A model generated the notes under the pieces. That model searched no databases. It saw nothing but the letters and a program-made list of their open reading frames with translations, and was not told where the DNA came from. From Terriglobia bacterium (lineage in GTDB: Bacteria > Acidobacteriota > Terriglobia > Acidiferrales > UBA7541): a DNA stretch of 64,000 nucleotides. The DNA lies in assembly GCA_963695545.1 (NCBI GenBank), contig OY968796.1, positions 1,824,001-1,888,000 on the forward strand, given 5' to 3'. Positions within the stretch are counted from its first letter, which is position 1, and the number at the start of each line of letters is the position of its first letter. Shown here in pieces: positions 47,093-62,803 of the stretch. The position numbers and the translations under genes are program-made.

Positions 47093-48160
47093 TTATTGAG
47101 ATGGAGTCGTTCCCTGCGTAAGCAGTCTCGGAATCGGGCGGTAGCCGCTCCTGGTACGAATGTGGTATTTCTTCAAGCGCGGACCCACCAGAGTCACCTT
47201 AATCGCGCGCCAGCCGCGGTTCGGATTTTCCTGAGGGTAGTAGCTGAGCGAATAGAGATGCGCGAGGTCATCACGCACCAGAGAGAAAGCCTTCTTTTGT
47301 CCTCTCCAACTGCTCGCAAAAAAGGCCCTGCCGCCCGTGCTCATACTCATGCGCGTGAAAACCTCGGCGGAAAGCGGGTCTTCTTGTGCTTCGCGGGTGC
47401 AGATCATGTAGATCGGAATTCCTTCCGACTGCGCCAATTCGCCAACGACATCGGGAGAAATCGCGCTGGCGTTGTCGGGTCCGTTGGAGAAAACTACCAC
47501 CACTTTTCTGCCGGTAAAGCCACCCGCATCTTTGAGTGTCAATAGCAGAGCGTCGTAAAGTGCCGCGTCGTCTCCGGCCACCGTGTCGCGCACCCCGCGC
47601 AAAACTTCCGATCGATCGGCGGTGAGCAGCGCCTCGCGCGACACATTGCGGCTGTAAGAATAAAACGCCACACGATCTGCGTTTTCCAGGGACCGGAGAA
47701 AGTCGGCGATGGCATCCTGCGCGAGGACAAAACCCTGGTGCAGATACATATAGTCACTCGTATCGAAGAGCACGAAAACGTCCGCGCCGGCCACGGCAAC
47801 GCCGAGCCGCTCCGCCGAGTCATCGGGCGGTGCCGCGGGGACGCTGGCCTGGCTGGCTTCGGTCGCCCCCGGTTGGGCCGGCACGGGCCCGGCGTCTGCA
47901 ATTGTTTGCGGGGCTCCGTTACCTTCTTCGAAGATGGCGATTTTTTGCGGAATCTTGTCCTCGGTAATCGCGAAGTCCTGGGGCCGCAGGCCGGTAACAT
48001 AGTTCCCTTTGCTGTCCGTCACTGCGACGTTCAGCTGCACCAGGTTGACTTCGACGCGGATCACCTGGTTTTGTGATGTGTCCTGAGCGGCCATCAAAAC
48101 CGCGGACACGGATATCAGTGTCAGTAAGATCAGACTGCACGCATAGGATCGCTTTGCCAT
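47093..48160 (-). CDS. Acidobacterial VWFA-related domain protein
   Basis: IRVEVNLVQLNVAVTD..GNYV.GL..DF.I.ED, LYDAL, RKVVVVFS, TGG and YSLSYYP...RTRSGY motifs. Confidence 0.85.
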   Translation of the reverse strand: MAKRSYACSLILLTLISVSAVLMAAQDTSQNQVIRVEVNLVQLNVAVTDSKGNYVTGLRPQDFAITEDKIPQKIAIFEEGNGAPQTIADAGPVPAQPGATEASQASVPAAPPDDSAERLGVAVAGADVFVLFDTSDYMYLHQGFVLAQDAIADFLRSLENADRVAFYSYSRNVSREALLTADRSEVLRGVRDTVAGDDAALYDALLLTLKDAGGFTGRKVVVVFSNGPDNASAISPDVVGELAQSEGIPIYMICTREAQEDPLSAEVFTRMSMSTGGRAFFASSWRGQKKAFSLVRDDLAHLYSLSYYPQENPNRGWRAIKVTLVGPRLKKYHIRTRSGYRPIPRLLTQGTTPSQ

Positions 48161-48240: not shown

Positions 48241-51200
48241 CTACTTTTCAGATACAGCGACACTCTTGGGCAAGGGAGCGATCTTGCCCTCCCGAAATTC
48301 CTCACCCGTTTCCCGCATCGCGCGCAGCAGCGCCGGCCAATCCTCGTAGTGCGTTGCAAATATTTTCTCGACCATGCGACGCGTCAATTCAGGAACCAAT
48401 TGATTCAGCATCACTGGGGAATAGCCAAGTTCGTCCGCCAAGCGAGCCCAGTACAGATTGTTTGACTCCCAAGATTCGGCCATCAAGCGCGAAGAATAAC
48501 TCTCGAACGTCGGGAGCAGCTTTACATTCATCAACTCGCGGGCGTCACTCTGTCCCAGGGCGGGATGAGGTATCCCAAAATCTTCCGACAGCCGTTCCGG
48601 GCCGACCTCCGCGGGATATTGAGTGGAGAGCTTGGCCAGTTCGTTCCCTGAAGCGCCCCAATGATCGGTGTCTTGCGGGTAGATTCGACGATACTCCTCC
48701 GCCAAGTAGAAGGTCTCCGCCGGCATGACCTCAGCGAGCACTTCGTCCATGTGCCCCGCGCGGAGATCATCCTCAACTCGTTCGGACCTTTGCGTAAGCA
48801 TGCAGTCCGAGAGGATATCCATTACCCGCTGGCGCACTGCGTCATTCTCGGCAGCAGCGGCCAAGAGTTCCTCGCCGGTTCGCTGGTACAGCGCGACAGC
48901 ATGAAGCTCGTTCGGAGTTACGCCCCACCACCGCGGCAGAACCGCGCTGGTCATCATGCTCGGTACCAAGTCCTCCCAGATCAGGGCTTGCACGTTATCC
49001 GGAACGATGAAGTCCTGCTCCGCATCCGCCAGGGCGAACGGCAGATCCGCCAGCGAGCCGACCAGATGGGATCCGCCTACCGCCAACAAGCCGCGGCCAG
49101 ACAACGTCGAGGTCTGCCAGTCAGGCTCTCCCCCGTCGGCAAACACTTCCACGAATTCGTGAGATCGAACGAAAAGGGGATCATTGTGGAGAATTTGAGC
49201 GCCGGGCGGTTCGTAGTAGGCATAGTTCAGGCCCACCAGAGTGTCTCTGAGGAACGGAGTGAGCTCACCGCGAGCCGCGATCAATTCTTGTGCCGAGCCA
49301 GAGTCGATGGCCTTGGCCAAGTCCGTGCGCATCTGCAATTTTGTGTGGCGAGGATCATACTGGCCGGAAGACCACTCATTTTTTTCGGTGCTCGTGAGAA
49401 TTTGCTGCGGCATCTCGAATTCCCGAAGCTGCGCGGCGAGTGGAAGCAGGCTGGCGGCAACGGCCTTTCCTTTGGCCATTTGATCCAAGCCATCCGCGAG
49501 CGCCAATATCGTGTCCAGAGAAACAAGACGCTGAGCGACCATGACCGAGCGAATTCTTTCAGCGATCTCCTGCCTGACTTGCTGGCCGTCGGGGCTTGCC
49601 TGATCGGGGCCCGCCAGCAACGCTACGATGTCGTCCTGGGAAAGATCGGATTTGCCGGTTGCGTCGTGCAACAGTGCAGCGAGTGAAGCTCGGCCCGCGT
49701 CGAAAACTTGTTGTGACGTGGTGATTCCAACAAAGGGATTGATCACGCGCTGCAACGAATCGTTCAAACTTGCATCCGCCATTTGCCCTTGCCGCGCCAG
49801 AATTTGCCACAGACCCACCTCAGCCTGAAAAATGCCGATAGCGTTGCCTCGCACCGTGCCGTCTGGAAGGTGGTCGAGGTCCTCGGCAACTTTCATAAAG
49901 TCTGTGATGGAGGCATTGCTCAGATCGCGAAATTCCGAAAACATCAGGTACTGGTCGCTGAATCGCGAAAATTTGTCGGCCAACAACCGGACTGTTTCCG
50001 GAGTCAATCGCTGTTCGGGTGACCGTCCGCGATCGATTTCGCACAACGAGAGGTATATTTCCAGCGGGCTGTCCATCATTTCCACCCGCGAAAGACCGAA
50101 CATTCCCTCGACAAGATTGTCTGGGCTCTCCCAGCGCGTTGCGCGCCGGCCCCATTCGCCGACGACCTTGGGATCGCTCTCCGTGTCGTGGCCCAGGATG
50201 TACTTCCATGCGTCGAGATTGCCGGGGACGAACGGCTGGCCGCTCGAGTCCAGCTGGAGCTGAGTCACAAGTAGCACGAGTCCCGCATCGGGACGATACG
50301 CGCTCCGGAACGACGTCTGGGAATTATCGTGTCCTCGGAGCGCTGCATAGAAAAGCTGCATTCGGGTTGGATCGGTGAAATAGGCCTGCTGAGTTTTGTT
50401 GCCCCGTGACAGCGCATCATAAAACGCCACCAGCCAGCCGTTGTCTTTGGTGAGCAGGTGAGATACGAATTCTCCGGGCGAATCCGGGCTCGCTCCTACC
50501 AGATCTTTCCACGTGGCTTCCGCGGGAGTTCCCCCGGGCACGACTACGCGTCCGGACCGAATGGAGATGTTACTCGCATAGAAGTCCATGACCGGAGCGT
50601 GGGGAAGCAATTTCGCCAATCCCAGCGATTGGTTCAACGCGTCACACGTTTCGATGTCCATCTGAGACATAGCCCAATAAAGACGGGAGACATCGGGGTC
50701 GCGCACAAGAACGTCAACTACATCGTTTGCGCCTCCCGAGCTCACTTGATCCTTTTTGAATGCGGTCCAGGCGTCCTGCCCGATCAACACCGGCACTTGT
50801 GTGGGAGCGAAAGAATAGGTGAAGGGTTTCGCCGCGCGCAGCGATTCCTCGAGGTCAGCGAGAGGAAAACCCGAATCTATGGTTACGAAGGCCCTACTCG
50901 GATCGGCAGTCTCCAAATAAACTTCCGGTCCACAAGTTTTCTCCAGCCGGTATCCCAAGATCGTCAGCAAGGCGCCCGCGTCGTTGCAAGTCGTCACGCG
51001 GATCACGCCTTCTGAACCAGCCAGCGTTTGCAATTCCCTGGCTTCTTGCAAATACCGCTGCAGGAGGATCAGATACTCCGTGGGCCGGTCACCATCTTTC
51101 CCCGAACCACGATAACCAAGGGTTGCCACACTTCGGGCCAGGAGTGGCAAAACCTCCTCCGGCGAAACTTGCTGGCTGATTCCAGCCATGCGCAATAAGG

Positions 51201-51393
51201 AGCGTAGCGGACCCGGAATGGCCGTCTCCGCCGGATGCAATGACACAGAAGGGTTAACGTCGAAAGGCCGAGTCGCCGCTAGAGGTTCCGACGGCCCTAA
51301 TTGAGCGGCACTTCTTGTCGGAACGGACAGGCAGGAACAAGTGCAGAGAATAGCCGCTGGAAGAATCGTAGAGAGGCGAAAAGAGGATCTCAT
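48241..51393 (-). CDS. Large exported hypothetical protein (1050 aa)
   Basis: Long uninterrupted ORF with GGAGG RBS and signal peptide; no recognised motif. Confidence 0.8.
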   Translation of the reverse strand: MRSSFRLSTILPAAILCTCSCLSVPTRSAAQLGPSEPLAATRPFDVNPSVSLHPAETAIPGPLRSLLRMAGISQQVSPEEVLPLLARSVATLGYRGSGKDGDRPTEYLILLQRYLQEARELQTLAGSEGVIRVTTCNDAGALLTILGYRLEKTCGPEVYLETADPSRAFVTIDSGFPLADLEESLRAAKPFTYSFAPTQVPVLIGQDAWTAFKKDQVSSGGANDVVDVLVRDPDVSRLYWAMSQMDIETCDALNQSLGLAKLLPHAPVMDFYASNISIRSGRVVVPGGTPAEATWKDLVGASPDSPGEFVSHLLTKDNGWLVAFYDALSRGNKTQQAYFTDPTRMQLFYAALRGHDNSQTSFRSAYRPDAGLVLLVTQLQLDSSGQPFVPGNLDAWKYILGHDTESDPKVVGEWGRRATRWESPDNLVEGMFGLSRVEMMDSPLEIYLSLCEIDRGRSPEQRLTPETVRLLADKFSRFSDQYLMFSEFRDLSNASITDFMKVAEDLDHLPDGTVRGNAIGIFQAEVGLWQILARQGQMADASLNDSLQRVINPFVGITTSQQVFDAGRASLAALLHDATGKSDLSQDDIVALLAGPDQASPDGQQVRQEIAERIRSVMVAQRLVSLDTILALADGLDQMAKGKAVAASLLPLAAQLREFEMPQQILTSTEKNEWSSGQYDPRHTKLQMRTDLAKAIDSGSAQELIAARGELTPFLRDTLVGLNYAYYEPPGAQILHNDPLFVRSHEFVEVFADGGEPDWQTSTLSGRGLLAVGGSHLVGSLADLPFALADAEQDFIVPDNVQALIWEDLVPSMMTSAVLPRWWGVTPNELHAVALYQRTGEELLAAAAENDAVRQRVMDILSDCMLTQRSERVEDDLRAGHMDEVLAEVMPAETFYLAEEYRRIYPQDTDHWGASGNELAKLSTQYPAEVGPERLSEDFGIPHPALGQSDARELMNVKLLPTFESYSSRLMAESWESNNLYWARLADELGYSPVMLNQLVPELTRRMVEKIFATHYEDWPALLRAMRETGEEFREGKIAPLPKSVAVSEK

Positions 51394-51961
51394 CGCAAAT
51401 ACCTCCCGACTGGCTGCTACTTAATGGCGCCCAATCCAGCGACGCGAATAGCGGGAGAGGACTCGATCCGCTCCCCGATGAATCCTGCAATCTGCTGGCC
51501 TAAATAGCGAGAATCGCGAATTCGATTTGGAGTGCGCGTAAACCGGAATCATTCCCGTTTTACGCGACTAACGTGTTGGCGACCCCCCTTACTGGGCGCA
51601 AGGGTATGCCAATCCCTGGACGTTCGTCAATTGCGACAATGATCTCGACCGGGGGCTCGCAGGCCCGGATCGGCCAAACCCATTTTGGGGCGTGCCGCGG
51701 AAAAATTCCCGCGTCGTGCAGGCGCCTCGCTAGAGTTTCGACGCAATCTTCGCGATTCAATATTCGTGATGCGGCCCACGCAAGGCCGATTTGCGCTTGC
51801 TTGAGATTCCGTTCGGGTCGTTTCGACCTTTGACGATTCTCAGCGGACTGGATTTATCTGATGAAGTACAGAGTTGCAGGTGGGTACATGGCTCCGTGCC
51901 AGCTCGCGCAGGCATGGAACAAGGCGGTCGAGTCTGGACGCAAAATCAGCGCAGGGCGTGG

Positions 51962-52017
51962 TTGAAAACGAATTGTCGGGGCAAGAGGATTTGAACCTCC
52001 GACCTCTAGTCCCGAAC
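51962..52017 (-). repeat. Degenerate 3' copy of tRNA-Pro (att direct repeat)
   Basis: TTGAAAACGAATTGTCGGGGCAAGAGGATTTGAACCTCCGACCTCTAGTCCCGAAC versus TTGAAAACAAATGGTCGGGGCGAGAGGATTTGAACCTCCGACCCCCTGGTCCCGAAC at 62716-62772. Identity ends at the anticodon loop. Confidence 0.9.
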
Positions 52018-52254
52018 GAGACTCTAGCGCTTATTGAAATCCATGAATTCCTGTTGATTCTAAGTGATCGCTGTTGATACGTTTGAGGCCTTCTTGTTGA
52101 ACTCCGTTGAGTCTTGTTGAAGTTGGGTGTTTTCGCAGCTGCAAAATTATCTACAGTTTGGCTCCACGCTACTGCCGAGACCGAGTTCGCGTCGAGCTTG
52201 GAACTTTTAGGACGGACAGAGCACGATTGCCTTGCGTCTAAAATCCGATCGCAT

Positions 52255-53709
52255 CTATTCCGCTTCGGCGGCGTTTTCTCGTCTCCCGGAAGCGGTGAAG
52301 TACGATCCAGACGCAAGTCCGACTTTAAGTACCGGATCTTTTCGCGAGGATTCCGTAGCTTCCGGGGCGCTCGCGGGCCCGGGTGAAGTCCGATCATTTC
52401 TTGGTGAGGGAATCCCCGGCTCGGAAGTGTCGAGCCCCTCCTCGATATCTTGGCGAGACTTGAGGCTGAACGCGCCGCGCAAAGCTATGGGCGTCAATAA
52501 GGTAGTGAGTAGCACGACGGCGACCATAACGGCGACCTCGGACCTTCCGAAGATGCCGGTGTTGGCGCCCATCGCCGTGACAATCAACCCAACCTCTCCG
52601 CGCGACATCATGCCGCAACCAACGCGAAGACTGCGCACCCAGTCCATGCCAGACCCGAGAGCAGCGAGACCGCAGCCAATGAGCTTTCCGATAATTGCGA
52701 CGAACAAAATTAGAAGCATCAGCGTCCAATGTCCCGCAAGAGCGCGGTAGTCGCTGGAAAGGCCGATCGAAATGAAAAACAAGGGGATTAATAGTCCGTG
52801 CCCGATCGCATAAAAGCTGCGCTCCACATCCGCCTTGAATTGCGATCCGGCAAAGACGTAGCCCAACAAATATGCTCCGGTGATGCCTGCGACGCTGCCA
52901 AGCCATTCGGCGGATAGCGCATACACCAGCACCAGGGCCAACACGCAACTCGGGACCGCTTCCGTAGCCGTCAATTTTCGCAACTGGATAATTAGCGGGT
53001 CGAGCCAACGTGTCGCCGCCACGTAGCCGATGACGAAAAAGACTACGACGCTCACGCTGATCATCGCCATTTGCACGATCAGCGGGTGAGCGGCCGCCGG
53101 TGCCAACGTCTGCTGCAGCCAACGGCTGGCCATCGGGGCCGCGCCGAACGCCTCTCCCTTGCCCGGCACCGTCGACGCCGCAAGGAAAGCGAGCACGAAC
53201 AGACCCATCACATCGTCGATCACCGCAGCGCCCAGGATCACGGTTGCTTCCTGGGAAGCCATTCGGCCGGCGTCCATCAATGTTCGCGCGGAAATGGATA
53301 CGCTGGTCGCGGTAAGCGCTCCGCCCAGGAAGCACGCGGTCGTCCACGACAGTCCGAGCATGTGAGCCACTGCCGCGCCGAGCAGAAATGGCCAAATCAC
53401 TCCGGACAGTGCGACGACGAAAGCCGTGACGCTCGCTTCGCGCATGCGGTCGATGTCGGTCTCGATGCCCGCTATGAACATCAGCACCAATCCACCGATT
53501 TGCGCGAGGATGAAGAGCGCCCCGGTCGCCTGCCCGCCAGCAAACAGATGCATATGCAATAGGTTGAGCAGGCCGGGGCCGAACAAAACTCCTACGGAGA
53601 GCTCTCCGATGATCGGCGGGATATTAAAATGCGAGCATAGCGAAGCGGCAATTTTGCTGGCCGGAAGAAGGATGGCCAGAAGTACGGCAAGCTGAAGGGC
53701 CGGTTGCAT
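52255..53709 (-). CDS. Cation:proton antiporter (CPA2/NapA-like)
   Basis: PPIIGE, MFIAGIETD, ATSVSISARTL, GAAVIDD, PLFF.SIG, GKLIG and SRGEV motifs. Confidence 0.9.
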   Translation of the reverse strand: MQPALQLAVLLAILLPASKIAASLCSHFNIPPIIGELSVGVLFGPGLLNLLHMHLFAGGQATGALFILAQIGGLVLMFIAGIETDIDRMREASVTAFVVALSGVIWPFLLGAAVAHMLGLSWTTACFLGGALTATSVSISARTLMDAGRMASQEATVILGAAVIDDVMGLFVLAFLAASTVPGKGEAFGAAPMASRWLQQTLAPAAAHPLIVQMAMISVSVVVFFVIGYVAATRWLDPLIIQLRKLTATEAVPSCVLALVLVYALSAEWLGSVAGITGAYLLGYVFAGSQFKADVERSFYAIGHGLLIPLFFISIGLSSDYRALAGHWTLMLLILFVAIIGKLIGCGLAALGSGMDWVRSLRVGCGMMSRGEVGLIVTAMGANTGIFGRSEVAVMVAVVLLTTLLTPIALRGAFSLKSRQDIEEGLDTSEPGIPSPRNDRTSPGPASAPEATESSRKDPVLKVGLASGSYFTASGRRENAAEAE

Positions 53710-53711
53710 TC

Positions 53712-54293
53712 TTAGCTGGCGTCCACCGCCGCCAAGCCCTCCGCCTTTCCTCGATTCCGCGTGAATAAGCGCCGCACGCGACTGAACGCCAGCCACGGCG
53801 TTCTATAACCATTGCGATCGACGCCCTCCCGCATCATCGTTCGAATCGTCGCGGCCTGGCGCCGCGCCGACTCTGCTTGCGCGAGATTCTGTGCCAGTCG
53901 AGCGGCCCGCTGGGTGTGGTCCTCGGCTTTGGTGATTACCCGCAAGCGCATCCACAGTTCGCCCATTTTCAAATGCGCGATGAAACTATTGGGGTCAAGC
54001 CTCACAGCATCGCCCAACTCCTCCATCGCATCCTGCACCTGCAGATTCACGCACAGCGCCATGCCAAACACGACGCGCAGTTCCGAAATCTTCGGATTTT
54101 GCGCCACGCATTCTCGTAAGGCTTTCACCAACTCAGCGCGCTCCTCTTTCGCGAGCACGTTGGGATCGGCGAACATTCGCAATAGAAATCCTTGTGCGCG
54201 AGCCGGCACCGAGGCCAGGGCCAAGGAGGGCTGTCTCGCGCTCAAGAAGCTTTCTGAGTTTTCGTCTCTGCGTATGATTTCGATTTCGCCCAT
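53712..54293 (-). CDS. TPR-like repeat protein
   Basis: Helical repeats ALRECVAQNP...LRVVFGMAL and AVRLDPNSFIAHLKMGEL; its stop lies 2 bp from the antiporter start. Confidence 0.7.
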   Translation of the reverse strand: MGEIEIIRRDENSESFLSARQPSLALASVPARAQGFLLRMFADPNVLAKEERAELVKALRECVAQNPKISELRVVFGMALCVNLQVQDAMEELGDAVRLDPNSFIAHLKMGELWMRLRVITKAEDHTQRAARLAQNLAQAESARRQAATIRTMMREGVDRNGYRTPWLAFSRVRRLFTRNRGKAEGLAAVDAS

Positions 54294-54423
54294 GATGTTT
54301 GTGTCCTTAAACCTCAGGTTCGTCTGCCACCTTCGTGAAGCGATTGCCGAACGCCACGTCCCAGCAAGCAAGACGCGTGGCCGAGGCGCGTCTTGCCGCT
54401 AGGCGTGTACTGCAACTCGTTGA

Positions 54424-56094
54424 TCAAGACACCGCGTATTCCTTTTCTGCCTTGATCATCCAATCCGGTTCCGGGTTCAGAGCAAACTCGGGATATCCAA
54501 GTTGGCCCATTTCCGGAATGTCCAGACCGGCTATCTCTGTCTCGATCGAAACTCGCTGTCCGATCACGAATTCCAGAGCGAGGTTGACGAGGAAACTGAA
54601 GGTGAAGACGAATCCGATGAGCGTCGAAATGCCCACAAGCTGTGCGGCAAGCTGGCTGGCATCGCCGTAGAATAGTCCGGTGACCGAACCGGTGACTCCG
54701 TTCCACGCTCCGCCGTAGTTGCTTGTGCCGTCGGCAAGAAGCCCGACGGAAAGCACGCCCCACAGACCGCAGGTCCCGTGCACCGAGATCGCACCGACTG
54801 GATCGTCGACCTTCATGACGTTCTCGATGAAGGAGCAACTCAAGACGACCAAAACGCCAGCCACGAGGCCGATGATGCAGGCCCCGACGGTGCTCACGAA
54901 ACCGCTGGGCGCGGTAATCGCAACGAGGCCCGCGAGGAGCCCGTTGCCGCTCATTGAGTAGTCCACCTTGCCGTTCTTCATCCACATGAACAGCATGGCG
55001 CCGAATGTGCCGGTGCAACCGGCAAGCATCGTGTCCACCGCGATCGTGCCGATCCGCAGATTTCCTGCGGCGGACGCACCCAATGTGCTGCCGGGATTGA
55101 ATCCGAACCAGCCGAACGCCAGGATGAAGCAGCCGATCAGCACGGCCGAGACGTCGTGGCCGATGATCGGGTTGCCCGAACCATCGCGGTTAAATTTTCC
55201 GATGCGCGGTCCGACGATGATGCTGACAGCGAGCGCCGTAATTCCCCCCACGGCGTGCACCACACCGGAGCCGGCAAAGTCACAGTAGCCCTTGCCCAGT
55301 TGGTTGTTGACGCCGAGTTGGGAGAGCCAGCCGCCGCCCCAAGCCCAGTTGCCATAGATTGGATAAGTGAGTGCGCCCATGATCGAAGAAGACACGCAGA
55401 ACGCCAGAAACTTCCAACGCTCGGCGCATGCTCCGGTCACGATGGTCAGCGCAGTGTCCATGAACACCATCTCGAACAGGAAAATCACCATCACCCCGAC
55501 GTCGTACGTGTGGCCGGAGAGAAGGTGGCCGGTCCATCCGAAGAGGCCCCACGTCTTGCCGAAGAGAGAGAATGTGTGCTCGGCAGAGAGCGACTGAAGT
55601 CCTCCGAGGTTACCGTTGCCCGCGGCTCCGCCCATTTGTATGGCGAAGCCCATTAACCAGTAGGAGAACAGACCGCACGCGTACACCATGAAATTCATCA
55701 TGTACGTATGATTTGCGTTCTTCACGCGGGTTAAGCCCGATTCCACCATCGCGAAACCCGCCTGCATGAACATGACCAGGAAGCCGGTGACGAGCGTCCA
55801 GACGAAGTTGATCGCGATCTTGTTTTGTCCGACTTGGTTGGCCACATCCGGAAGCGTGAGCCCGGTGGTGGGATTGGAAACCGGTACATCGTTGATTGTT
55901 CCGGTGATCGTCCCGCCTGGATCGCCCTTCGCCAAGTCCGCCACGGTAGGAGCTTTGGCTGCCCCCGCCGCCAGTTCAGCGGTTGAGGCGGACGTAGGCG
56001 CCGCAGCTGGAGCCGGCGTCTGCGCACGTAGCGCGATCCCCGCAGCGAGCGTGATGATTGCGAGGCCGAAAAAAAGGTTCCGCATTTTTTTCAT
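54424..56094 (-). CDS. amt: Ammonium transporter (Amt family)
   Basis: FMQAGFAMVE.G, GACAER, WGGGWL, DFAGSGVVH, GPR.GKF, GWFGFNPGS, NGLLAGLVAITA, DDPVGAISVHG and E.AGLD motifs. Confidence 0.96.
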   Translation of the reverse strand: MKKMRNLFFGLAIITLAAGIALRAQTPAPAAAPTSASTAELAAGAAKAPTVADLAKGDPGGTITGTINDVPVSNPTTGLTLPDVANQVGQNKIAINFVWTLVTGFLVMFMQAGFAMVESGLTRVKNANHTYMMNFMVYACGLFSYWLMGFAIQMGGAAGNGNLGGLQSLSAEHTFSLFGKTWGLFGWTGHLLSGHTYDVGVMVIFLFEMVFMDTALTIVTGACAERWKFLAFCVSSSIMGALTYPIYGNWAWGGGWLSQLGVNNQLGKGYCDFAGSGVVHAVGGITALAVSIIVGPRIGKFNRDGSGNPIIGHDVSAVLIGCFILAFGWFGFNPGSTLGASAAGNLRIGTIAVDTMLAGCTGTFGAMLFMWMKNGKVDYSMSGNGLLAGLVAITAPSGFVSTVGACIIGLVAGVLVVLSCSFIENVMKVDDPVGAISVHGTCGLWGVLSVGLLADGTSNYGGAWNGVTGSVTGLFYGDASQLAAQLVGISTLIGFVFTFSFLVNLALEFVIGQRVSIETEIAGLDIPEMGQLGYPEFALNPEPDWMIKAEKEYAVS

Positions 56095-56144
56095 CTTTAT
56101 TCTTCGCTCCTAATCGTAAGATTGCCGGCGAGAGGCCGGCCCGT

Positions 56145-56537
56145 TCAGCTTTTCTTCCAAACCGCGTTCTTATTGAATGCCGCTGGCAAAACCACGATGA
56201 TCCCGAACAGACTCACGGCGATACCCACCAACGCAAGGGCAATTCGCCCGCCGGTGCTGGGAGTGAGGTGCATGCCGAAGAGCGTGATCACCCATCCCAG
56301 CGCTGCTACTGCGGCGCCGACCAATTTCATCGCGAGTGGGTTGGACTTGAGTGCGGTCTTGCCCTCCAGCGACTTGATACTCCACATTCCGAACAGGCTA
56401 CCGACCAACCCCGCCCCTCCGACGATCATGAGCACCGTGCCCGTTCCGCTGGGAGCGTAGTAGATGCCGGCACAAAGCACGGTCGCTGCCGCCAAGAACA
56501 ACGCGTAATAGTTTCCTTGCGATTTGTTCGCTGCCAT
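56145..56537 (-). CDS. Small 4-TM membrane protein of unknown function
   Basis: GAGGAGG RBS, four hydrophobic segments, directly upstream of amt. Confidence 0.75.
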   Translation of the reverse strand: MAANKSQGNYYALFLAAATVLCAGIYYAPSGTGTVLMIVGGAGLVGSLFGMWSIKSLEGKTALKSNPLAMKLVGAAVAALGWVITLFGMHLTPSTGGRIALALVGIAVSLFGIIVVLPAAFNKNAVWKKS

Positions 56538-56772
56538 TAAACCTTTCCTCCTCGACCCGAAAGGGTCATTTGCGAAGTAGCAAGTCCCGTATAACTTTCA
56601 CGCTTTCCCGTGGTCCCATTGCGCCCTGGTCCAGCCAGAAGCGACACCGATACAGATTGGCCCTCGTTGTCAAAAAGCTACTTTCTTCACGGCTGGATCT
56701 TGTCGCGTCGCGCGCCCGACTGAATCCGCGTCTTCAGACCGCGGAGAATGGCGCAAACGCGTACCGGGTGTT

Positions 56773-57081
56773 TCATCTTGTCCTCGCCACTTCCGGTGCT
56801 TGCGCGCGTGTTGGCACCGCAAGAAACATCACGAACTCCATCGCGACGGTCATCTCGGCGACCATGGGAGCTCCTCTCTGCGCCCGTATTACGAGGAGGA
56901 GTGCGACCATCGAAAACCACTGCCAACGGGACCGGCGCAGCCGTTCCAGGCGCGCCGGCAGACGAAACAGATTCCCAAACTCCAGTTTTCCACCGTCAAC
57001 CGCGGGTACGCTCGTGCGCAGGCAGGCGACAGCAAAAAACCCCGCAAGTATTATCTCGACAAGAAAATTCTGGTAACCCAT
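56773..57081 (-). CDS. Small membrane protein of unknown function
   Basis: GAGGGGG RBS, 2-3 hydrophobic segments, co-oriented in the operon. Confidence 0.65.
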   Translation of the reverse strand: MGYQNFLVEIILAGFFAVACLRTSVPAVDGGKLEFGNLFRLPARLERLRRSRWQWFSMVALLLVIRAQRGAPMVAEMTVAMEFVMFLAVPTRAQAPEVARTR

Positions 57082-57111
57082 GAATCCCCCCTCGTGTTGG
57101 GCCTCGACGGA

Positions 57112-57606
57112 CTAGGCGTGGCTTGAAATCCCCAGAGCCACTTCTTCTCCCATCGAGTCCTCGGCCGGCATGCTCACCAAAATCTCTTCCTCAAGCGAAA
57201 ATCGCAGACCAAAAAGTTTGGCCCGCATCGGCAGTGAACGTATTCTGGAAGCCACCTGATCGTGTCTCTTGATCGTGCCCGCGATGATGAGTTCCAGTGG
57301 CGCGCCCGCCGTGTATCGGAAGACCCGAACGCACGCCATGTGAAGATCTGCGAAGGCCCAGAACATGAACTCACGCACCCGCAGTGCGTCTCGCAGAGCT
57401 TGCGCGGAGGAATTGCGCTGCCCCACGCTCGGCGCCAACTCCGCGTCCCACTGATCGGCTGGCCGCGCAACCCAGTCGCATTCGGCGTAATCGCCGCGCA
57501 GTTCTATCCGCAGTAGCCTCAGGGGAGCGCGGGAAAGGTCGCCGTATTGGGCGCGCATCCTGAATTTACGGGCAAAATCGCCAACTTCACTCAAGCGCCT
57601 GATCAT
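57112..57606 (-). CDS. Hypothetical soluble protein (164 aa)
   Basis: GGGAGG RBS before MIRRLSEV; the upstream in-frame extension looks non-coding. Confidence 0.65.
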   Translation of the reverse strand: MIRRLSEVGDFARKFRMRAQYGDLSRAPLRLLRIELRGDYAECDWVARPADQWDAELAPSVGQRNSSAQALRDALRVREFMFWAFADLHMACVRVFRYTAGAPLELIIAGTIKRHDQVASRIRSLPMRAKLFGLRFSLEEEILVSMPAEDSMGEEVALGISSHA

Positions 57607-58146
57607 CGCTCCCTCCCTTCTGTTGCCCGCGTCCGAGATCCGGTCACCCTCAGCCGTTGCGCCGCCGCTCGTTCTCTCAGACGGCGGCAATTGTGCGTAC
57701 CGCGGTCGAGCGGCCAAGACTCGCTCGTGGCTCGCAATCGGGCGAGTAGATCGGTCCCCGCGCTCCGAGGGTCGCAGCGCGGCGCTCTGGCGGGCCCTGG
57801 GAGAGATATTCAAAAACTTTCTTTCCGTTTCTTGACTCAACGCTTTTCTCCGCGCGACTACTTTTTCCCACTCTGGAGGCAATGAGCCTACCGCCGAGGC
57901 GCAAACAACACGCCCCGCCCGTGCCACGGACGGTGTATGAAGACACGTCCGCGAAATTCGTTTTAGCTCGGCGTCGAGCCTAATTTAGCGATTGGTTCGG
58001 ACACGGCGTCGTGTCCGCGACAACTGAGAAGGGATTCCTCATCTCGGCAACGAGCGAGGAACTGAAGGCATCTTCGCCTTCGTGCGGAGATTGCAATGTT
58101 TCAGAAGAAGAGTCAAATGCAAACTTTGAATCAAGTCAATCGAATC

Positions 58147-58947
58147 CTATGACACTCCAGCAGAGGCCGTTCGCTTCCTGGATGCTGCGGAAATCGGAGC
58201 GGGAGTGCGCTTCAGGTCGTCGCTCAAAATGATTGCTTCGGCGATCTCTCTCATCGACTTTCGCCTTTCCTGGCTTTCGCGCTGAATAGTCCGGTAGGCG
58301 GAGTCTTCGGAAATTTTCAGTTCAGATTGCAATATGCCTTTCGCGCGTTCGATCAGCGTCCGCATTTCCAATTTCTTTAGAAGCAGAGAGTTCTCGTTTT
58401 CTAGCCGGACTCTTTCGATTTCGGAGCCCACCAGTACGCCAAGCGTCGCGATCAGGGTGATTTGGCGCTCGCTATATTGATGTTGTTTCCGATTCTGTAC
58501 GTTTACGACGCCGATCAACTTGCCGCCACTGACCACCGGGACGGACAGAAACGCTTCGAACCGATCCTCGGGCAATTCATTGAATAGCTTGAAGCGCCGG
58601 TCCTCGTAGGCGCGCTGCGCGACGACCACGGGTTCCCGATTCACGGCGACCCAACCGGTGATTCCTTGTCCCATTTTCATTGCCAAGCGGTCTACAACTT
58701 CGGGATGTGGATTCTTGGACGCTCGCAGGACGAGCTCGTCTTTTTCGAGCACGTAGAGCATGCACGAATCGCACTGCACGGCGGCGGTCACGAACTTCAC
58801 GACTTCTTCGAGGACCTCATGCATTGGAGCGGCCGCGGACAAGCGAACGGCGAGTCGATTCAGGAGAACAAAATCGATGTCGCGATTCGTCGCGCCGTTG
58901 TGGTCTCGGCTTACCGGAACTAAAGTCGCCCGCTGCAAGAGAGCCAC
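58147..58947 (-). CDS. GAF-ANTAR RNA-binding antitermination regulator
   Basis: GAF (LVLRAS, GQGITGWVA, D.RF, FLSVPV, IGVVNVQ) plus ANTAR (LIERAKGIL, EDSAYR.IQ.ES...RKSM.EIAEAII); GTG start 6 nt after AGGAGG. Confidence 0.92.
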   Translation of the reverse strand: MALLQRATLVPVSRDHNGATNRDIDFVLLNRLAVRLSAAAPMHEVLEEVVKFVTAAVQCDSCMLYVLEKDELVLRASKNPHPEVVDRLAMKMGQGITGWVAVNREPVVVAQRAYEDRRFKLFNELPEDRFEAFLSVPVVSGGKLIGVVNVQNRKQHQYSERQITLIATLGVLVGSEIERVRLENENSLLLKKLEMRTLIERAKGILQSELKISEDSAYRTIQRESQERRKSMREIAEAIILSDDLKRTPAPISAASRKRTASAGVS

Positions 58948-59176
58948 CAAGAGCCTCCTGTTCGTATACCTTCCACTTTGAAGCGACAGCCATGTCCGCG
59001 CGATCACGGTGGAAATGTCTGCGTTAAAGGTCGATTTTATCCTGGCGCTTCGCGAGAGCATCGCCGTCTTTCGGGGCGCCCAGGCTATCTTTTGGCTAGG
59101 GTAGGTATCATCGGAGGGTCTTGCTGCGATAATACGGTCAGCCAGAATGCGGTCCATGGGAGATTAATTCGCGCGT

Positions 59177-60568
59177 ATGGACGCCTACTCCATCTATTCC
59201 GAGACCAATCGGACTGCTCTGCTGGCGACGAGCTTAATTCTGATATTCGCGATCGCGGTGATCGATGTGGTCACTCCGAGTTTTCCGCTCGGGTATCTAT
59301 ACCTCCTTCCAATTCTTCTTGTCTCTGGATTCTTGGATCGCGAGTGGATTACCATTATCGTGATCCTCTGCGCTTTCTTGACGGCTGCTTTGAGCCGCTA
59401 TGAGTTCAAACAAGCGGTCGTCCTTTTCCTGATGGCCTTGACCGCTTTTGGTGGCACGGGCTTTTTCGTTTCCGAGGTCGTTCTAAATCGCCAAAAAGCG
59501 CTCGATTACATTCGGAAAATGGAAACCGAAATACGCTTGCGGCGGGAAACTGAAGACCAACTGCTCGGACTCGTTCAAAGTAGCCCGCTCGCGATCGTAA
59601 CCATCGGCGCGAACGGGGAAATACTCTTGGCCAACGACGCCGCCCAGAACTTGTTCGCTCCTGGAGACGCTCCGATTCCAGGCCAACCGATTGCGCAATT
59701 TCTGCCCGCCCTGCAGTCCGTGACGCAGCAATCCCGCTCGCATCTTTTTCGTACACGCATTCGGTGTCGGGGACAACGCAAAGGTGGCGAAATGTTCCTC
59801 GCCACGGTTTGGTTCTCCACCGCGCTGACCGCAGTCGGACTGATCGTTTTAGCGATTATTATCGATTTTTCCGAAGACGTCCAGGATCGGGAAGATCTGA
59901 GCCTCGAGCACCTCCTGAAGAATGCCAGAATCCTAGTGGGCGCGATCTCGCACGAAATCCGAAATTTATGCGGTGCCGCGTTGATCGTATTTAGAAACCT
60001 CTCTCGAGTCCCCGAACTGTCGCGCAATGAAGATTTCAATGCGCTCGGCGCATTGATTGGCGGACTCGAGAAATTATCGACGATGGAGTTGAAGCCGTCG
60101 TCGCTTCAAGACCTGGGTGCTGTCGAGCTGTTTTCGGTACTGGATGAATTCCGGGTTGTCGTCGAGCACGCTTGCCGGGAGTCCGGCATCAAAGTGATTT
60201 GGAACGTACAGGAGTCTCTGCCATTGGTGACCGGCGATCGGTACGGCATGCAGCAGGTTTTCCTAAACCTTGCGCGAAATAGCCAGCGCGCAATGGAAGC
60301 CACCGCTCGCAAAGAACTCGCGATCACCAGCGAGGTCAGTGCGGCGTCCGTCGTGCTCCGTTTTGAGGACACCGGCATCGGCGTGTCGGATACATCCCAG
60401 TTATTCCGGCCATTCAATGAACGAGGTACCACCGGCCTTGGCTTATATGTTTCACGCGCGATTCTCCGCAGCTTTCACGGCGACCTTCAGCACGAGGAGC
60501 GCACCGAAGGCTGTTCGTTTGCTGTTACGCTCGAAAGATTCGTTTCCTCGGAGGATGACGGCGCGTGA
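59177..60568 (+). CDS. Membrane-bound PAS sensor histidine kinase
   Basis: N-terminal TM bundle, PAS (SSPLAIVTI...N.AA..LF), H-box SHEIRN, N-box QQVFLNL..N, DTGIG, F.PF and GLGL. Confidence 0.9.
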   Translation: MDAYSIYSETNRTALLATSLILIFAIAVIDVVTPSFPLGYLYLLPILLVSGFLDREWITIIVILCAFLTAALSRYEFKQAVVLFLMALTAFGGTGFFVSEVVLNRQKALDYIRKMETEIRLRRETEDQLLGLVQSSPLAIVTIGANGEILLANDAAQNLFAPGDAPIPGQPIAQFLPALQSVTQQSRSHLFRTRIRCRGQRKGGEMFLATVWFSTALTAVGLIVLAIIIDFSEDVQDREDLSLEHLLKNARILVGAISHEIRNLCGAALIVFRNLSRVPELSRNEDFNALGALIGGLEKLSTMELKPSSLQDLGAVELFSVLDEFRVVVEHACRESGIKVIWNVQESLPLVTGDRYGMQQVFLNLARNSQRAMEATARKELAITSEVSAASVVLRFEDTGIGVSDTSQLFRPFNERGTTGLGLYVSRAILRSFHGDLQHEERTEGCSFAVTLERFVSSEDDGA

Positions 60569-61218
60569 CCACTCCTGCCGGCGATATTCGGATCTTGCTC
60601 GTCGACGATCACTCGCTGTTTCGAGAAAGCCTGGCGAGGTTGCTCCAAGCCGAGCCGGGTTTCGATCTTGCGGCACATTGCGGTTCCGGCGCGGAAGCCT
60701 TGCAAATTTTGAAGTCCCGCGTGATCGATCTCGTTTTGCTCGACGTCGATCTCGGTACAGAACGGGCTGCCCACGTCATCGATGACTTTCGCGCCATCGG
60801 CTATCCGGGAAAGATTCTGCTGGTCACCGCCGGGGTCGACGAGAGCGAAGTTCCGGACTTTATTCGCAAAGGAATCGCCGGCGTCTTTATGAAGCACAAT
60901 TCTCCGGCGCTCTTGATCCAGGGAATTCGCGAAACGATGCAAGGCAAAGTATGGTTTGAGCAGGACCTCCTGAAGAGGGCGTTTCAGGGGGCCGTCGCCG
61001 GCCGGACCGCCGCTGCTCCCGCCAAGCTCACCAAGCGGGAAAGGGAAGTCATGTCCTTTGTCTTCGAGGGCCTGGCCAACAAGCAGATCGCGGATCGAAT
61101 CCACGTTTCAGAAAGCGCGGTGAAAGCATGCCTTCAGCAATTGTTTGACAAGACCGGCGTGCGAACTCGAAGCCAATTGGTTCGAGTCGCGCTCGAACGA
61201 TATCGTGACGAGTTATAG
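60565..61218 (+). CDS. NarL/LuxR-family response regulator
   Basis: LVDDH, LLDVDL, FMK, LTKREREV, GLANKQIA and SESAVK motifs; GTGA overlap with the kinase stop. Confidence 0.93.
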   Translation: MTTPAGDIRILLVDDHSLFRESLARLLQAEPGFDLAAHCGSGAEALQILKSRVIDLVLLDVDLGTERAAHVIDDFRAIGYPGKILLVTAGVDESEVPDFIRKGIAGVFMKHNSPALLIQGIRETMQGKVWFEQDLLKRAFQGAVAGRTAAAPAKLTKREREVMSFVFEGLANKQIADRIHVSESAVKACLQQLFDKTGVRTRSQLVRVALERYRDEL

Positions 61219-61284
61219 CGCGTTCGAGGCTTGGCGCTTCGATCCGCCGGAATAAAAATACAGTCGCGGTTCTCGCGGCACGAC

Positions 61285-62235
61285 CTAATGCCGCGAGAAA
61301 TAAAGTAGCAATCCAAAAATCAAGATGGGGATGAAGGCAAGCGTCACATACAACACGATTGTTCCTGTTCCTGGCCCGCGTTGTTTTTTCCAGTCCCGCA
61401 GCTCGGCGCGGTCCGCCACGCCAACCTGATCAAGGTGCTGCAAATCGTGCGCGAATTCGTGCGCGCTCCCGTAGCGATTCCTGTGTTCTCGCTCCAGAGC
61501 CCTGCAGATCACCTCTTGTAACTGAAGTGAAATCGAGGGATCGATTTCGCGTGGCGGAATCGGATATGTCAACAACCGGTCAAATGGATCGCTTCCCGCG
61601 AACGGCGTCGCGCCCGTGAGCATTTCGTACAGAATCACGCCGAGCGAGTAGATATCGCTGCGTGCGTCGCCTCGTTTCCCCGACAATTCTTCGGGAGAAA
61701 TGTACGGCGTTACTCCCACGATTTGCGCAAGGCTCGTGAACGTCAATCGCGCCGAACCCTCCTTCGCGGCGGCGCCAAAATCCGTCAATTTGATGTGATC
61801 GTCGGGCCCGACCAGGATGTTCTCCGGCCTTAGGTTGCGGTGCACCACGCCATGGTTGTGAATGTACTCAAGCACATCGCACACCGACACGGCGATCCGA
61901 TTCGCCCGATCTTGAGAGAGCCTTTTCTCCTGATTGAGTATTCGGCGTAGTGATTGGCTTTCAAACCACTCGGTCACCAAGTACGTCTGGCCGCGATGCT
62001 CGTCGGGATGTAGTTTCAGCAGCCCGGGGTGGCTTAGGGTCTTGCCGATCTCCTCTTCGCGGTGAAAGCGATCGAACAGCGCGACGTCACTTTCGACTTC
62101 AGGATGCGGAATCTTAAGAGCTACCGGCTGGTTCGTGCGGAGGTCGGTGGCCCGAAAAGTGGATGTGGTGTTGCTGCTTGATACGAGGCTGTCGATGCGA
62201 TAGTGATCGAACTGGTCGCCGAGGTTGATGGACAT
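61285..62235 (-). CDS. Hanks-type Ser/Thr kinase-fold protein with C-terminal TM, probable pseudokinase
   Basis: VALK, DFG, YISPE, DIYSLG and EMLTG..PF are present, but the catalytic loop reads HRNLRPEN and the Gly-rich loop has no Gly. Confidence 0.88.
   Translation of the reverse strand: MSINLGDQFDHYRIDSLVSSSNTTSTFRATDLRTNQPVALKIPHPEVESDVALFDRFHREEEIGKTLSHPGLLKLHPDEHRGQTYLVTEWFESQSLRRILNQEKRLSQDRANRIAVSVCDVLEYIHNHGVVHRNLRPENILVGPDDHIKLTDFGAAAKEGSARLTFTSLAQIVGVTPYISPEELSGKRGDARSDIYSLGVILYEMLTGATPFAGSDPFDRLLTYPIPPREIDPSISLQLQEVICRALEREHRNRYGSAHEFAHDLQHLDQVGVADRAELRDWKKQRGPGTGTIVLYVTLAFIPILIFGLLLYFSRH

Positions 62236-62726: not shown

Positions 62727-62803
<77 letters not shown>

Follow-up and report, generated by a model that had tools for sequence, protein, structure and literature searches.

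Ammonium transporters of the Amt/Mep/Rh family are described as self-sufficient homotrimers that are controlled by soluble partners or fused domains, and small membrane-protein partners are known for other transporters, for instance KdpF, AcrZ and MgtS. In the accessible text of a 2023 review (PMC10710835), PII is the only Amt regulator that is named. The available part of the report on the Methanosarcina mazei sP36-AmtB1-GlnK1 system (PMC10714827) describes sP36 as a 61-aa cytoplasmic hexameric adaptor, and that of PMC11152129 describes Ks-Amt5 and Sd-Amt1, non-transporting receptors with a fused transducer. ANTAR targets are presented as dual hexaloops with A1 and G4 in the main text of PMC3369931, and the available parts of PMC3369931 and PMC8164766 place ANTAR target RNAs upstream of ammonium transporters. 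Herein, we analyzed an amt locus at 52255..62235 of the window, by which we mean the whole stretch of 64,000 nucleotides taken from contig OY968796.1 of a Terriglobia bacterium (positions 1,824,001 to 1,888,000). The gene directly before amt encodes a 130-aa membrane protein, designated m130, and a gene for a GAF-ANTAR regulator lies further upstream on the same strand. Searches of the open-access literature listed no account of this operon or of an Amt membrane subunit.

Like KdpF, AcrZ and MgtS, m130 would be a small hydrophobic subunit at the flank of a transporter. Compared with E. coli AmtB-GlnK, the window lineage shares the Amt fold, the Phe gate, the twin His, the C-terminal motif and the nitrogen context, but it has no adjacent PII and adds a predicted integral-membrane subunit, a TPR protein, an antiporter and a pseudokinase. 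As sP36 is described in the available text, m130 resembles it in being a small protein on Amt that would act together with PII and not instead of it; by description, not by alignment, m130 differs in being an integral membrane protein whose gene stands directly before amt and whose predicted site is on helix 11. The N1/N2 residues and the exit Asn are common to the window Amt and to Ks-Amt5/Sd-Amt1 as described in the accessible part of PMC11152129, and these receptors are its nearest solved structures, but the window Amt has no fused kinase or cyclase, the signalling proteins being separate genes. The regulatory arm resembles EutV/NasR, as far as these are covered by the sources available, in its GAF-ANTAR protein with conserved G4-binding residues and in its hexaloop hairpins with G4. 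Unlike EutV/NasR, it has up to four hairpins, a first loop position that is mostly G, Gln or Arg in place of Met172, and no clear overlapping intrinsic terminator. On balance, we lean toward reading the locus as a conserved acidobacterial amt operon switched by ANTAR, in which Amt has m130 as a dedicated membrane subunit and is likely an ammonium importer, with PII still able to act in trans.

The first-pass annotation had proposed a nitrogen module, and a gene-neighbourhood survey recovered the same gene order in GTDB and metagenome loci. A GTDB scan with the m130 alignment confirmed 82 loci, of which 80 were kept, and the metagenome set comprised the best 80 of 276 loci; each denominator counts only the loci of sufficient length for the test concerned. 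The homologues of the uncharacterized genes were syntenic with amt elsewhere. The amt gene directly followed m130 in 77/77 GTDB and 66/66 metagenome loci, the TPR gene followed amt (74/74 and 43/43), and the gene for a second small membrane protein, m102, lay upstream of m130 (79/79 and 61/62). The gene for a soluble protein, u164, was present in 58/79 GTDB and 58/62 metagenome loci, and a GAF-ANTAR gene was found upstream within 3 kb in 43/76 and 25/30, respectively. A CPA2 antiporter gene was the third gene after m130 in 64/74 GTDB and 35/35 metagenome loci, and the 10/74 loci without it shared another membrane-protein gene at the same place, between the TPR and kinase genes. Four of these loci were read and two were scanned, both of the latter giving weak matches to PF03600 (IT superfamily). 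The linkage to an antiporter that had been suggested earlier thus holds as linkage to an obligatory secondary transporter (64/74 CPA2 plus 10/74 IT-family). The substitute is a PF03600-like transporter of about 610 aa (L055:13243-15078, L065:12910-14757) with no NCBIfam match.

Collectively, u164-m102-m130-amt-TPR-antiporter forms a conserved block behind a conserved hairpin leader, and the layout is far beyond chance. Since both locus sets were picked via m130 and their members are mutually kin, the synteny counts measure linkage and not independent events. The homologues with a named source were from Acidobacteriota, chiefly Ca. Acidiferrales and Terriglobales.

Two clades of Amt carry a small protein related to m130: clade A, to which the window Amt belongs, and a gate-less clade that includes the second amt of the source genome. 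m130 itself (56145..56537, minus strand) likely has four helices and is the predicted Amt subunit. It has 547 homologues and no match in Pfam, NCBIfam or PDB. Profile searches identified it as a fusion of two two-helix proteins of about 60 aa, which also occur as separate genes. The locus L016 was considered as a broken m130, a candidate that was rejected when it was recognized as the split two-gene form. Specificity was assessed on the amt genes of 90 class genomes, with flanks taken for nearly all of them. A C-half protein was encoded upstream of amt in 4/4 assessable clade-A cases (the fifth is cut by a contig end), in 12/12 gate-less cases and in 0/114 other amt genes, of which 110 had at least 700 bp upstream and a few were possibly counted twice. 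In the gate-less clade, the C-half gene overlaps the start of amt by overlapping stop and start codons. A phylum search in which 19 candidates were scored per genome found the C-half in at least 8 of 300 genomes, a lower bound, and one match (L105) was without amt.

The first-pass annotation had also suggested that a small membrane protein may be a partner of Amt, and for m130 this was supported by a predicted complex and by covariation. When Amt residues 49-542 (one protomer) were folded with m130, the interaction prediction score from aligned errors (ipSAE) was 0.87, and the best of three controls reached 0.00. The contacts agreed by at least 89% between runs, with a partner pLDDT (predicted local distance difference test) of at least 83. 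The ipSAE mark was passed by 116/157 solved pairs and by 2/215 mismatched pairs, a calibration that is only roughly valid for the alignments used here. m130 has no relative in PDB that could have been memorised. The core of the interface was formed by Amt helix 11 (residues 479-512) and m130 residues 78-113, and Amt residues 292-305, 426-429 and 514-520 were also contacted; we take helix 11 to be lipid-facing and the contacted loops to be involved in gating. Gly494 was present in 14/15 clade-A and 10/10 gate-less Amts, versus 0/5 and 12/94 Amts without the small protein.

The top inter-protein covariation, Amt483/m130-99, is one of the 25 best-resolved predicted contacts. The pair A483/I99 ranked first in the 43 rows used by the model. 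It was again first, of 11,745, in the 53 held-out pairs, where the pattern had no exception: Ile accompanied Ala or Thr, and Leu, Met or Gly accompanied Val. Nine concordant switches were counted on a tree built without helix 11. Judged from the predicted complex and this covariation, Amt and m130 very probably bind each other.

The Amt (54424..56094, minus strand; 556 aa) has a signal peptide and a conserved periplasmic N-terminal extension. It matched PF00909 at an E-value of 1e-102 (344 bits against a cut-off of 23.2) and TIGR00836 with 351 bits against 343. W252, S336, F211, F332, H280, H439 and D272 were invariant in 15/15 clade-A rows; the recruitment site, Phe gate, twin His and conserved Asp are thus intact, the pore-residue roles being presumed from E. 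coli numbering. The C-terminal motif is also intact and holds no phosphorylatable residue at what we take to be the regulatory position of plant AMT1. In the source genome, a single contig of 4.16 Mb, this was the only gate-intact Amt found. In the Amt tree, 5/118 rows (L229, L225, L206, L154 and L130) were on very long branches, were presumed to be wrong-frame extractions and were excluded from the residue comparisons. The two carrier clades grouped together with a support of 0.966, along with five partner-less Amts. In 10/10 gate-less Amts, the two gate Phe and the recruitment Ser have been lost, and 6/10 have also lost one His; their genes usually lie with those for an APC permease, an intact kinase and a PP2C. 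At G000:C1:150561-156390 (L008), the gate-less Amt has no Phe gate, Gly in place of Ser and Gln in place of His. It comes with a C-half protein of 59 aa, and the two are encoded divergently from an APC permease, a PP2C and a membrane-anchored Ser/Thr kinase that is intact. Such units are widespread in the class and are sometimes fused with the window's module in one locus (L054, L057-L059, L080 and L095). By its gene content, the gate-less unit looks like a signalling unit.

The GAF-ANTAR regulator (58147..58947, minus strand; 266 aa) was recognized by Pfam/NCBIfam, the ANTAR domain PF03861 scoring 59.8 bits against a cut-off of 27.3. Its GAF domain is closest to PtsP/EI-Ntr (E-value 2e-18). 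The GAF domain of PtsP binds glutamine according to the available text of PMC4848567, and by analogy we infer that glutamine may be the signal here. EutV, in the accessible description (PMC8934654), reads only G4, via Arg142, Lys149, Glu160 and Tyr164; Met172 is essential and A1 has no protein contact. The R, K, E and Y of this RNA site were invariant, with EutV spacing, in 34/34 ANTAR sequences.

Folding revealed an ANTAR-target-like leader at 57965..58081 (minus strand) with four C(GNNGNN)G hexaloop hairpins, at 58064-58081, 58037-58059, 57998-58017 and 57965-57980. The linkers between them are 4, 19 and 17 nt long, dual hexaloops with G4 are present, and the hairpins lie more than 350 nt upstream of u164. 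The central hairpin was found in 63/80 leaders (the window included), with G4 in 61, and in 39/50 metagenome leaders, with G4 in 38. In a count that admits hexaloops with G1 and C6, paired hairpins occurred in 38/80 leaders versus a shuffle mean of 1.2 and maximum of 5. Among 18 leaders chosen for a close hairpin pair, 9/14 base pairs were compensatory and G-U pairs were present; this was reached by 0/500 shuffles, and slid controls were lower. The two-sided changes and the G-U pairs therefore favor RNA over a DNA palindrome. A possible sigma70-type promoter, TTGACT-17-CAATCT (58088..58116, minus strand), was read by eye, and its -35 word recurs in 13/80 homologous leaders; a consensus promoter scan gave chance-level counts and did not report this site. 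Rfam found only the tRNA. In a genome-wide hairpin-cluster scan, the leader was among 14 three-hairpin clusters, with no clear second target. A model of the leader, R1, ranked the leader first in the genome, at an E-value of only 0.07, and gave no firm target upstream of glnA, glnK or the second amt. Because the genome scans yielded no clear second target, we claim no wider ANTAR regulon. The proposal of ANTAR control over the operon has thus gained a matching RNA leader and conserved G4-binding residues, and it is probable, from these sequence features, that ANTAR controls this leader.

All seven minus-strand open reading frames, the divergent two-component pair and the kinase gene named in the first-pass annotation are present. 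Their starts were refined from ribosome-binding sites and homologues to a GTG at 58947 for ANTAR, 57606 for u164, 54293 for TPR and 53709 for CPA2. The seven co-oriented genes had been taken as a unit. From ANTAR to CPA2, the gaps measure 540, 30, 235, 50, 130 and 2 bp, and since the 540-bp gap with its conserved structured leader splits ANTAR from u164, the ANTAR gene and the six genes downstream are probably not one transcript. Likely, ANTAR is its own transcription unit and u164 to CPA2 form one transcript. Near glnK, a BBP2 porin and glnA, a second GAF-ANTAR (56% identical) was found at G000:C1:210849-227457 (L007), where other neighbours resemble, by eye, a sulfate adenylyltransferase, a uroporphyrinogen synthase and a siroheme synthase.

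In the operon that we favor, the PtsP-like GAF domain would sense nitrogen through glutamine or a related signal. The dimer of ANTAR would bind pairs of G4 hexaloops so that the message passes when nitrogen is short. m130 is predicted to pack on the S-x-x-x-G face of helix 11 and to touch the loops M5-M6 and M9-M10 as well as the beginning of the C-terminal region, a contact that would stabilise the trimer and couple the gate to the partners TPR, pseudokinase and m102. Ammonium would pass through the Phe gate and the twin His, both of which are intact, and its ion or proton load would be offset by the obligatory secondary transporter. PII encoded elsewhere could still close the pore, so that m130 would add to PII control and not replace it. 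The sequences suggest that uptake is distinctly likelier than sensing.

Several observations weigh against this interpretation. The binding of m130 to Amt is a prediction, made from one folded protomer rather than the trimer. The bulk covariation is weak, with 8 interface pairs in the top 50 of the held-out set versus 0-9 in 8 shuffled pairings, one of which gave 9; in all 95 pairs, 10 interface pairs were found versus 1-5 after shuffling. Several nodes of the tree on which the concordant switches were counted are poorly supported, and the held-out pairs are kin of the training pairs. The five Amts nested between the two carrier clades have no detectable small protein. On the regulatory side, the position of EutV Met172, mapped by residue spacing and not by alignment to EutV, was Gln in 26 and Arg in 8 of 34 sequences. 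Loop position 1 was mostly G and not the canonical A (G 40, A 17, C 4 and T 2 of 63), and the reverse strand scored 14/80 in the same hairpin test. No convincing intrinsic terminator was found after the hairpins, where a weak site lies at 57930-57914 (13 found versus 12.9 expected). Several genomes hold a canonical amt-glnK in addition to clade A, and plain uptake may therefore not be the clade-A job. Finally, the Amt carries the full set of N1/N2 residues of the receptor type, together with the Asn that narrows the exit in the non-transporting Sd-Amt1/Ks-Amt5.

This last point leads to a competing explanation, in which the locus encodes a split ammonium receptor: Amt would bind ammonium at N1/N2 and mainly signal, and m130 would stand in for the fused transducer of Ks-Amt5/Sd-Amt1, relaying the movement of helix 11 to TPR, pseudokinase and antiporter. 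F114, E118, N134, T217, T220 and N384, invariant in 15/15 clade-A Amts, match F25, E29, N45, T104, S107 and N269 of Sd-Amt1 (numbering from the accessible part of PMC11152129). The two solved chains closest to clade-A Amt, 6EU6 and 8QPF, are both receptors, and m130 is predicted on helix 11, the helix that leads to the transducer in Ks-Amt5/Sd-Amt1. It also speaks for a receptor that the gate-less paralog retains its small protein and sits with an intact kinase, a PP2C and an APC permease. However, the other acidobacterial Amts of this subfamily, many of which are encoded beside glnK, also have F, E and N at positions 114, 118 and 384 (33/33), and these residues are therefore not diagnostic of a receptor. 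The Amt has no C-terminally fused transducer (one Pfam domain and a short tail in 556 aa), the module kinase is mostly degenerate, and the source genome would be left without a gate-intact importer. We thus regard a split receptor as rather unlikely.

Equally doubtful is the explanation that m130 serves this Amt clade purely in assembly or stability and takes no part in gating, control being exerted by PII in trans and ANTAR. KdpF offers a small-protein parallel for such a role. The best-resolved contacts are helix-helix packing within the membrane, even the gate-less paralog has retained the C-half, encoded with overlapping stop and start codons, and the C-terminal motif for PII is intact. 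However, invariant residues of m130 are also found at its cytoplasmic ends (MAA..QG, K..E and K.A.WK), and the predicted interface includes loop M5-M6 and the C-terminal region.

Given the lack of glnK next to amt, it had been suggested that the role of PII as off-switch of Amt may be taken over by the small membrane proteins or by TPR. The lack itself was confirmed: the sole genomic PII, at C1:223270 beside a porin and glnA, is 1.65 Mb from amt, so that the adjacent PII of a glnK-amtB operon is missing. In the m102-bearing lineage, PII was found inside 1/58 GTDB loci, in one further locus that is short, and in 0/13 metagenome loci, as a replacement would have it. Yet the class-wide sample has PII within 2.5 kb, alongside the small proteins and TPR, in 3/5 basal clade-A loci, and L016 has it as well. 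Moreover, Amt has kept its C-terminal motif, glnK and GlnD-domain genes are present in the genome, and the predicted m130 site is at the membrane flank and not at the pore exit, where we presume the PII site to be. The PII site on Amt is treated in the accessible text of PMC10710835. A replacement of PII is accordingly improbable. In the source genome, glnK has no adjoining amt, whereas the same-genus genome G001 has amt-glnK.

The idea that unrelated genes gathered by chance at a tRNA hotspot, to which the varied cargo of this site in same-genus genomes and the variable two-component pair might point, is refuted for the core block by the same order in more than 140 loci and in other genomic settings, by the conserved leader and by the inter-protein covariation.

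The remaining genes of the locus differ in how firmly they belong to it. Pfam/NCBIfam domains were found for CPA2, Amt, GAF+ANTAR, HATPase/PAS, REC-LuxR and Pkinase, a TPR-like match was sub-threshold, and u164, m102 and m130 had no match. The antiporter (52255..53709, minus strand; 484 aa) is a NapA-like CPA2 cation/H+ antiporter (PF00999, E-value 2e-55) that falls below the TIGR00932 cut-off. Its closest solved chain is the Na+/H+ antiporter 4BWZ (E-value 2e-42), with which the IDD and GK motifs align; we take these to be the Asp-Asp and Lys motifs of NapA with their usual meaning. A structure model (pLDDT 79.5) confirmed the TPR fold of the module-specific TPR protein (53712..54293, minus strand; 193 aa), whose C-terminal helix is amphipathic or hydrophobic. 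The family goes with amt, as all 3 strong matches (E-value at most 6e-18) in 250 phylum genomes were at amt. m102 (56773..57081, minus strand) is a small membrane protein that matches no Pfam family and contains a basic segment, RLRRSRWQWF, that is conserved.

u164 (57112..57606, minus strand) is a soluble alpha/beta protein with a model pLDDT of 83. Foldseek gave no match at an E-value of 0.001 or below. Comparison with the CDF C-terminal domain or the CamS fold gave VIA Z scores of 7.3 (root-mean-square deviation 3.1, 95 aligned) and 7.2 (2.5, 80 aligned), which are within the range of common arrangements. There was no PII-like match among the Foldseek and VIA results, which leaves a likeness to PII conceivable. 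In L182, a histidine kinase, response regulator, ANTAR and u164 precede a different amt clade with glnK, with a weak match to the leader model between ANTAR and u164. This second setting, in which u164 accompanies ANTAR upstream of a different amt-glnK, suggests that u164 may be part of the regulatory arm.

The kinase (61285..62235, minus strand) is a membrane-anchored Hanks-type pseudokinase with HRN for HRD and no glycine loop, and thus lacks the full set of HRD Asp, catalytic-loop Asn, DFG Asp and VAIK Lys of an active kinase. A kinase gene within 6 kb in 53/61 GTDB loci supports the earlier view that the pseudokinase is part of the module. Module-type and paralogue kinases were distinguished by an activation-loop motif, and four kinases longer than 400 aa were excluded. 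A core catalytic residue was lacking in 51/58 module-type kinases, with differing lesions; 7/58 were intact versus 12/13 paralogues. A third close paralog of the module kinase, with 47% identity, is at G000:C1:81876-82829. The two-component pair consists of a membrane PAS histidine kinase (59177..60568, plus strand) and a NarL/LuxR-type response regulator (60565..61218, plus strand). The window-type divergent kinase and regulator were found in only 3/71 and 4/71 GTDB loci, respectively, and a co-oriented pair of a different type in 29/71; the pair is therefore a variable passenger and does not keep the membership once proposed for it.

The att-bounded segment of the first-pass annotation was also recovered. 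One end is tRNA-Pro(CGG) (62727..62803, minus strand), the integration site that bounds the block, and the other is an att-like remnant (51962..52157, minus strand) composed of a decayed copy of the tRNA 3' half (about 51962-52020) and a conserved arm of about 130 bp. A 43-nt repeat in it is 93% identical to the tRNA end, and the identity is 88% across 59 nt. The att arm of about 200 bp (window about 51958-52157) has many copies in same-genus genomes at 76-85% identity (L260, L262, L263 and L265-L269). Several copies are in tandem near tRNA-Pro(CGG) with varied cargo between them, which resembles a cassette array without an adjacent integrase. No integrase was found inside the block, as all 5 PF00589 matches were outside, so that it lacks the integrase between att sites of an autonomous integrative element. 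Five same-genus genomes, three of them at least 90% complete, gave no m130 match and no Amt above 41% identity, and G001, G003 and G004 have different cargo and extra att-arm copies at the same tRNA. Since same-genus genomes lack m130 and hold other cargo at this tRNA, we infer that the block is acquired cargo at the tRNA-Pro site of the source genome. Its G+C content is 0.574 versus 0.606 for the genome (4th percentile), and its tetranucleotide distance is unremarkable, 30/208 windows being equally far. Outside the block, window positions 48241-51393 encode a 1050-aa signal-peptide protein without a Pfam/NCBIfam match, adjoining an acidobacterial VWA protein (TIGR03436) at 47093-48160; the 1050-aa protein is 73-75% conserved in two same-genus genomes.

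A bolder proposal, which we put forward tentatively, is that clade-A and gate-less Amts are hetero-oligomers in which one small subunit per protomer couples helix 11 to signalling proteins (TPR, pseudokinase or kinase/PP2C) and to the antiporter, making a multi-component ammonium transceptor, possibly phosphorylation-linked, under an ANTAR switch with altered RNA specificity. The leader would be a candidate ANTAR target RNA in Acidobacteriota; the main text of the ANTAR literature available lists none from this phylum, and Table S2 of PMC3369931 might list some. The m130 system offers a compact test case, with a 130-aa protein, a natural compensatory pair (Ala/Ile versus Val/Leu, Met or Gly) and split and fused forms, and the gate-less paralog serves as a built-in control. 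It bears on how the C-terminal region gates the pore and on how transporter and receptor are set apart when the site residues are identical. If true, an integral-membrane subunit that sits on helix 11 and the gating loops and co-evolves with Amt would add a new mode of Amt control.

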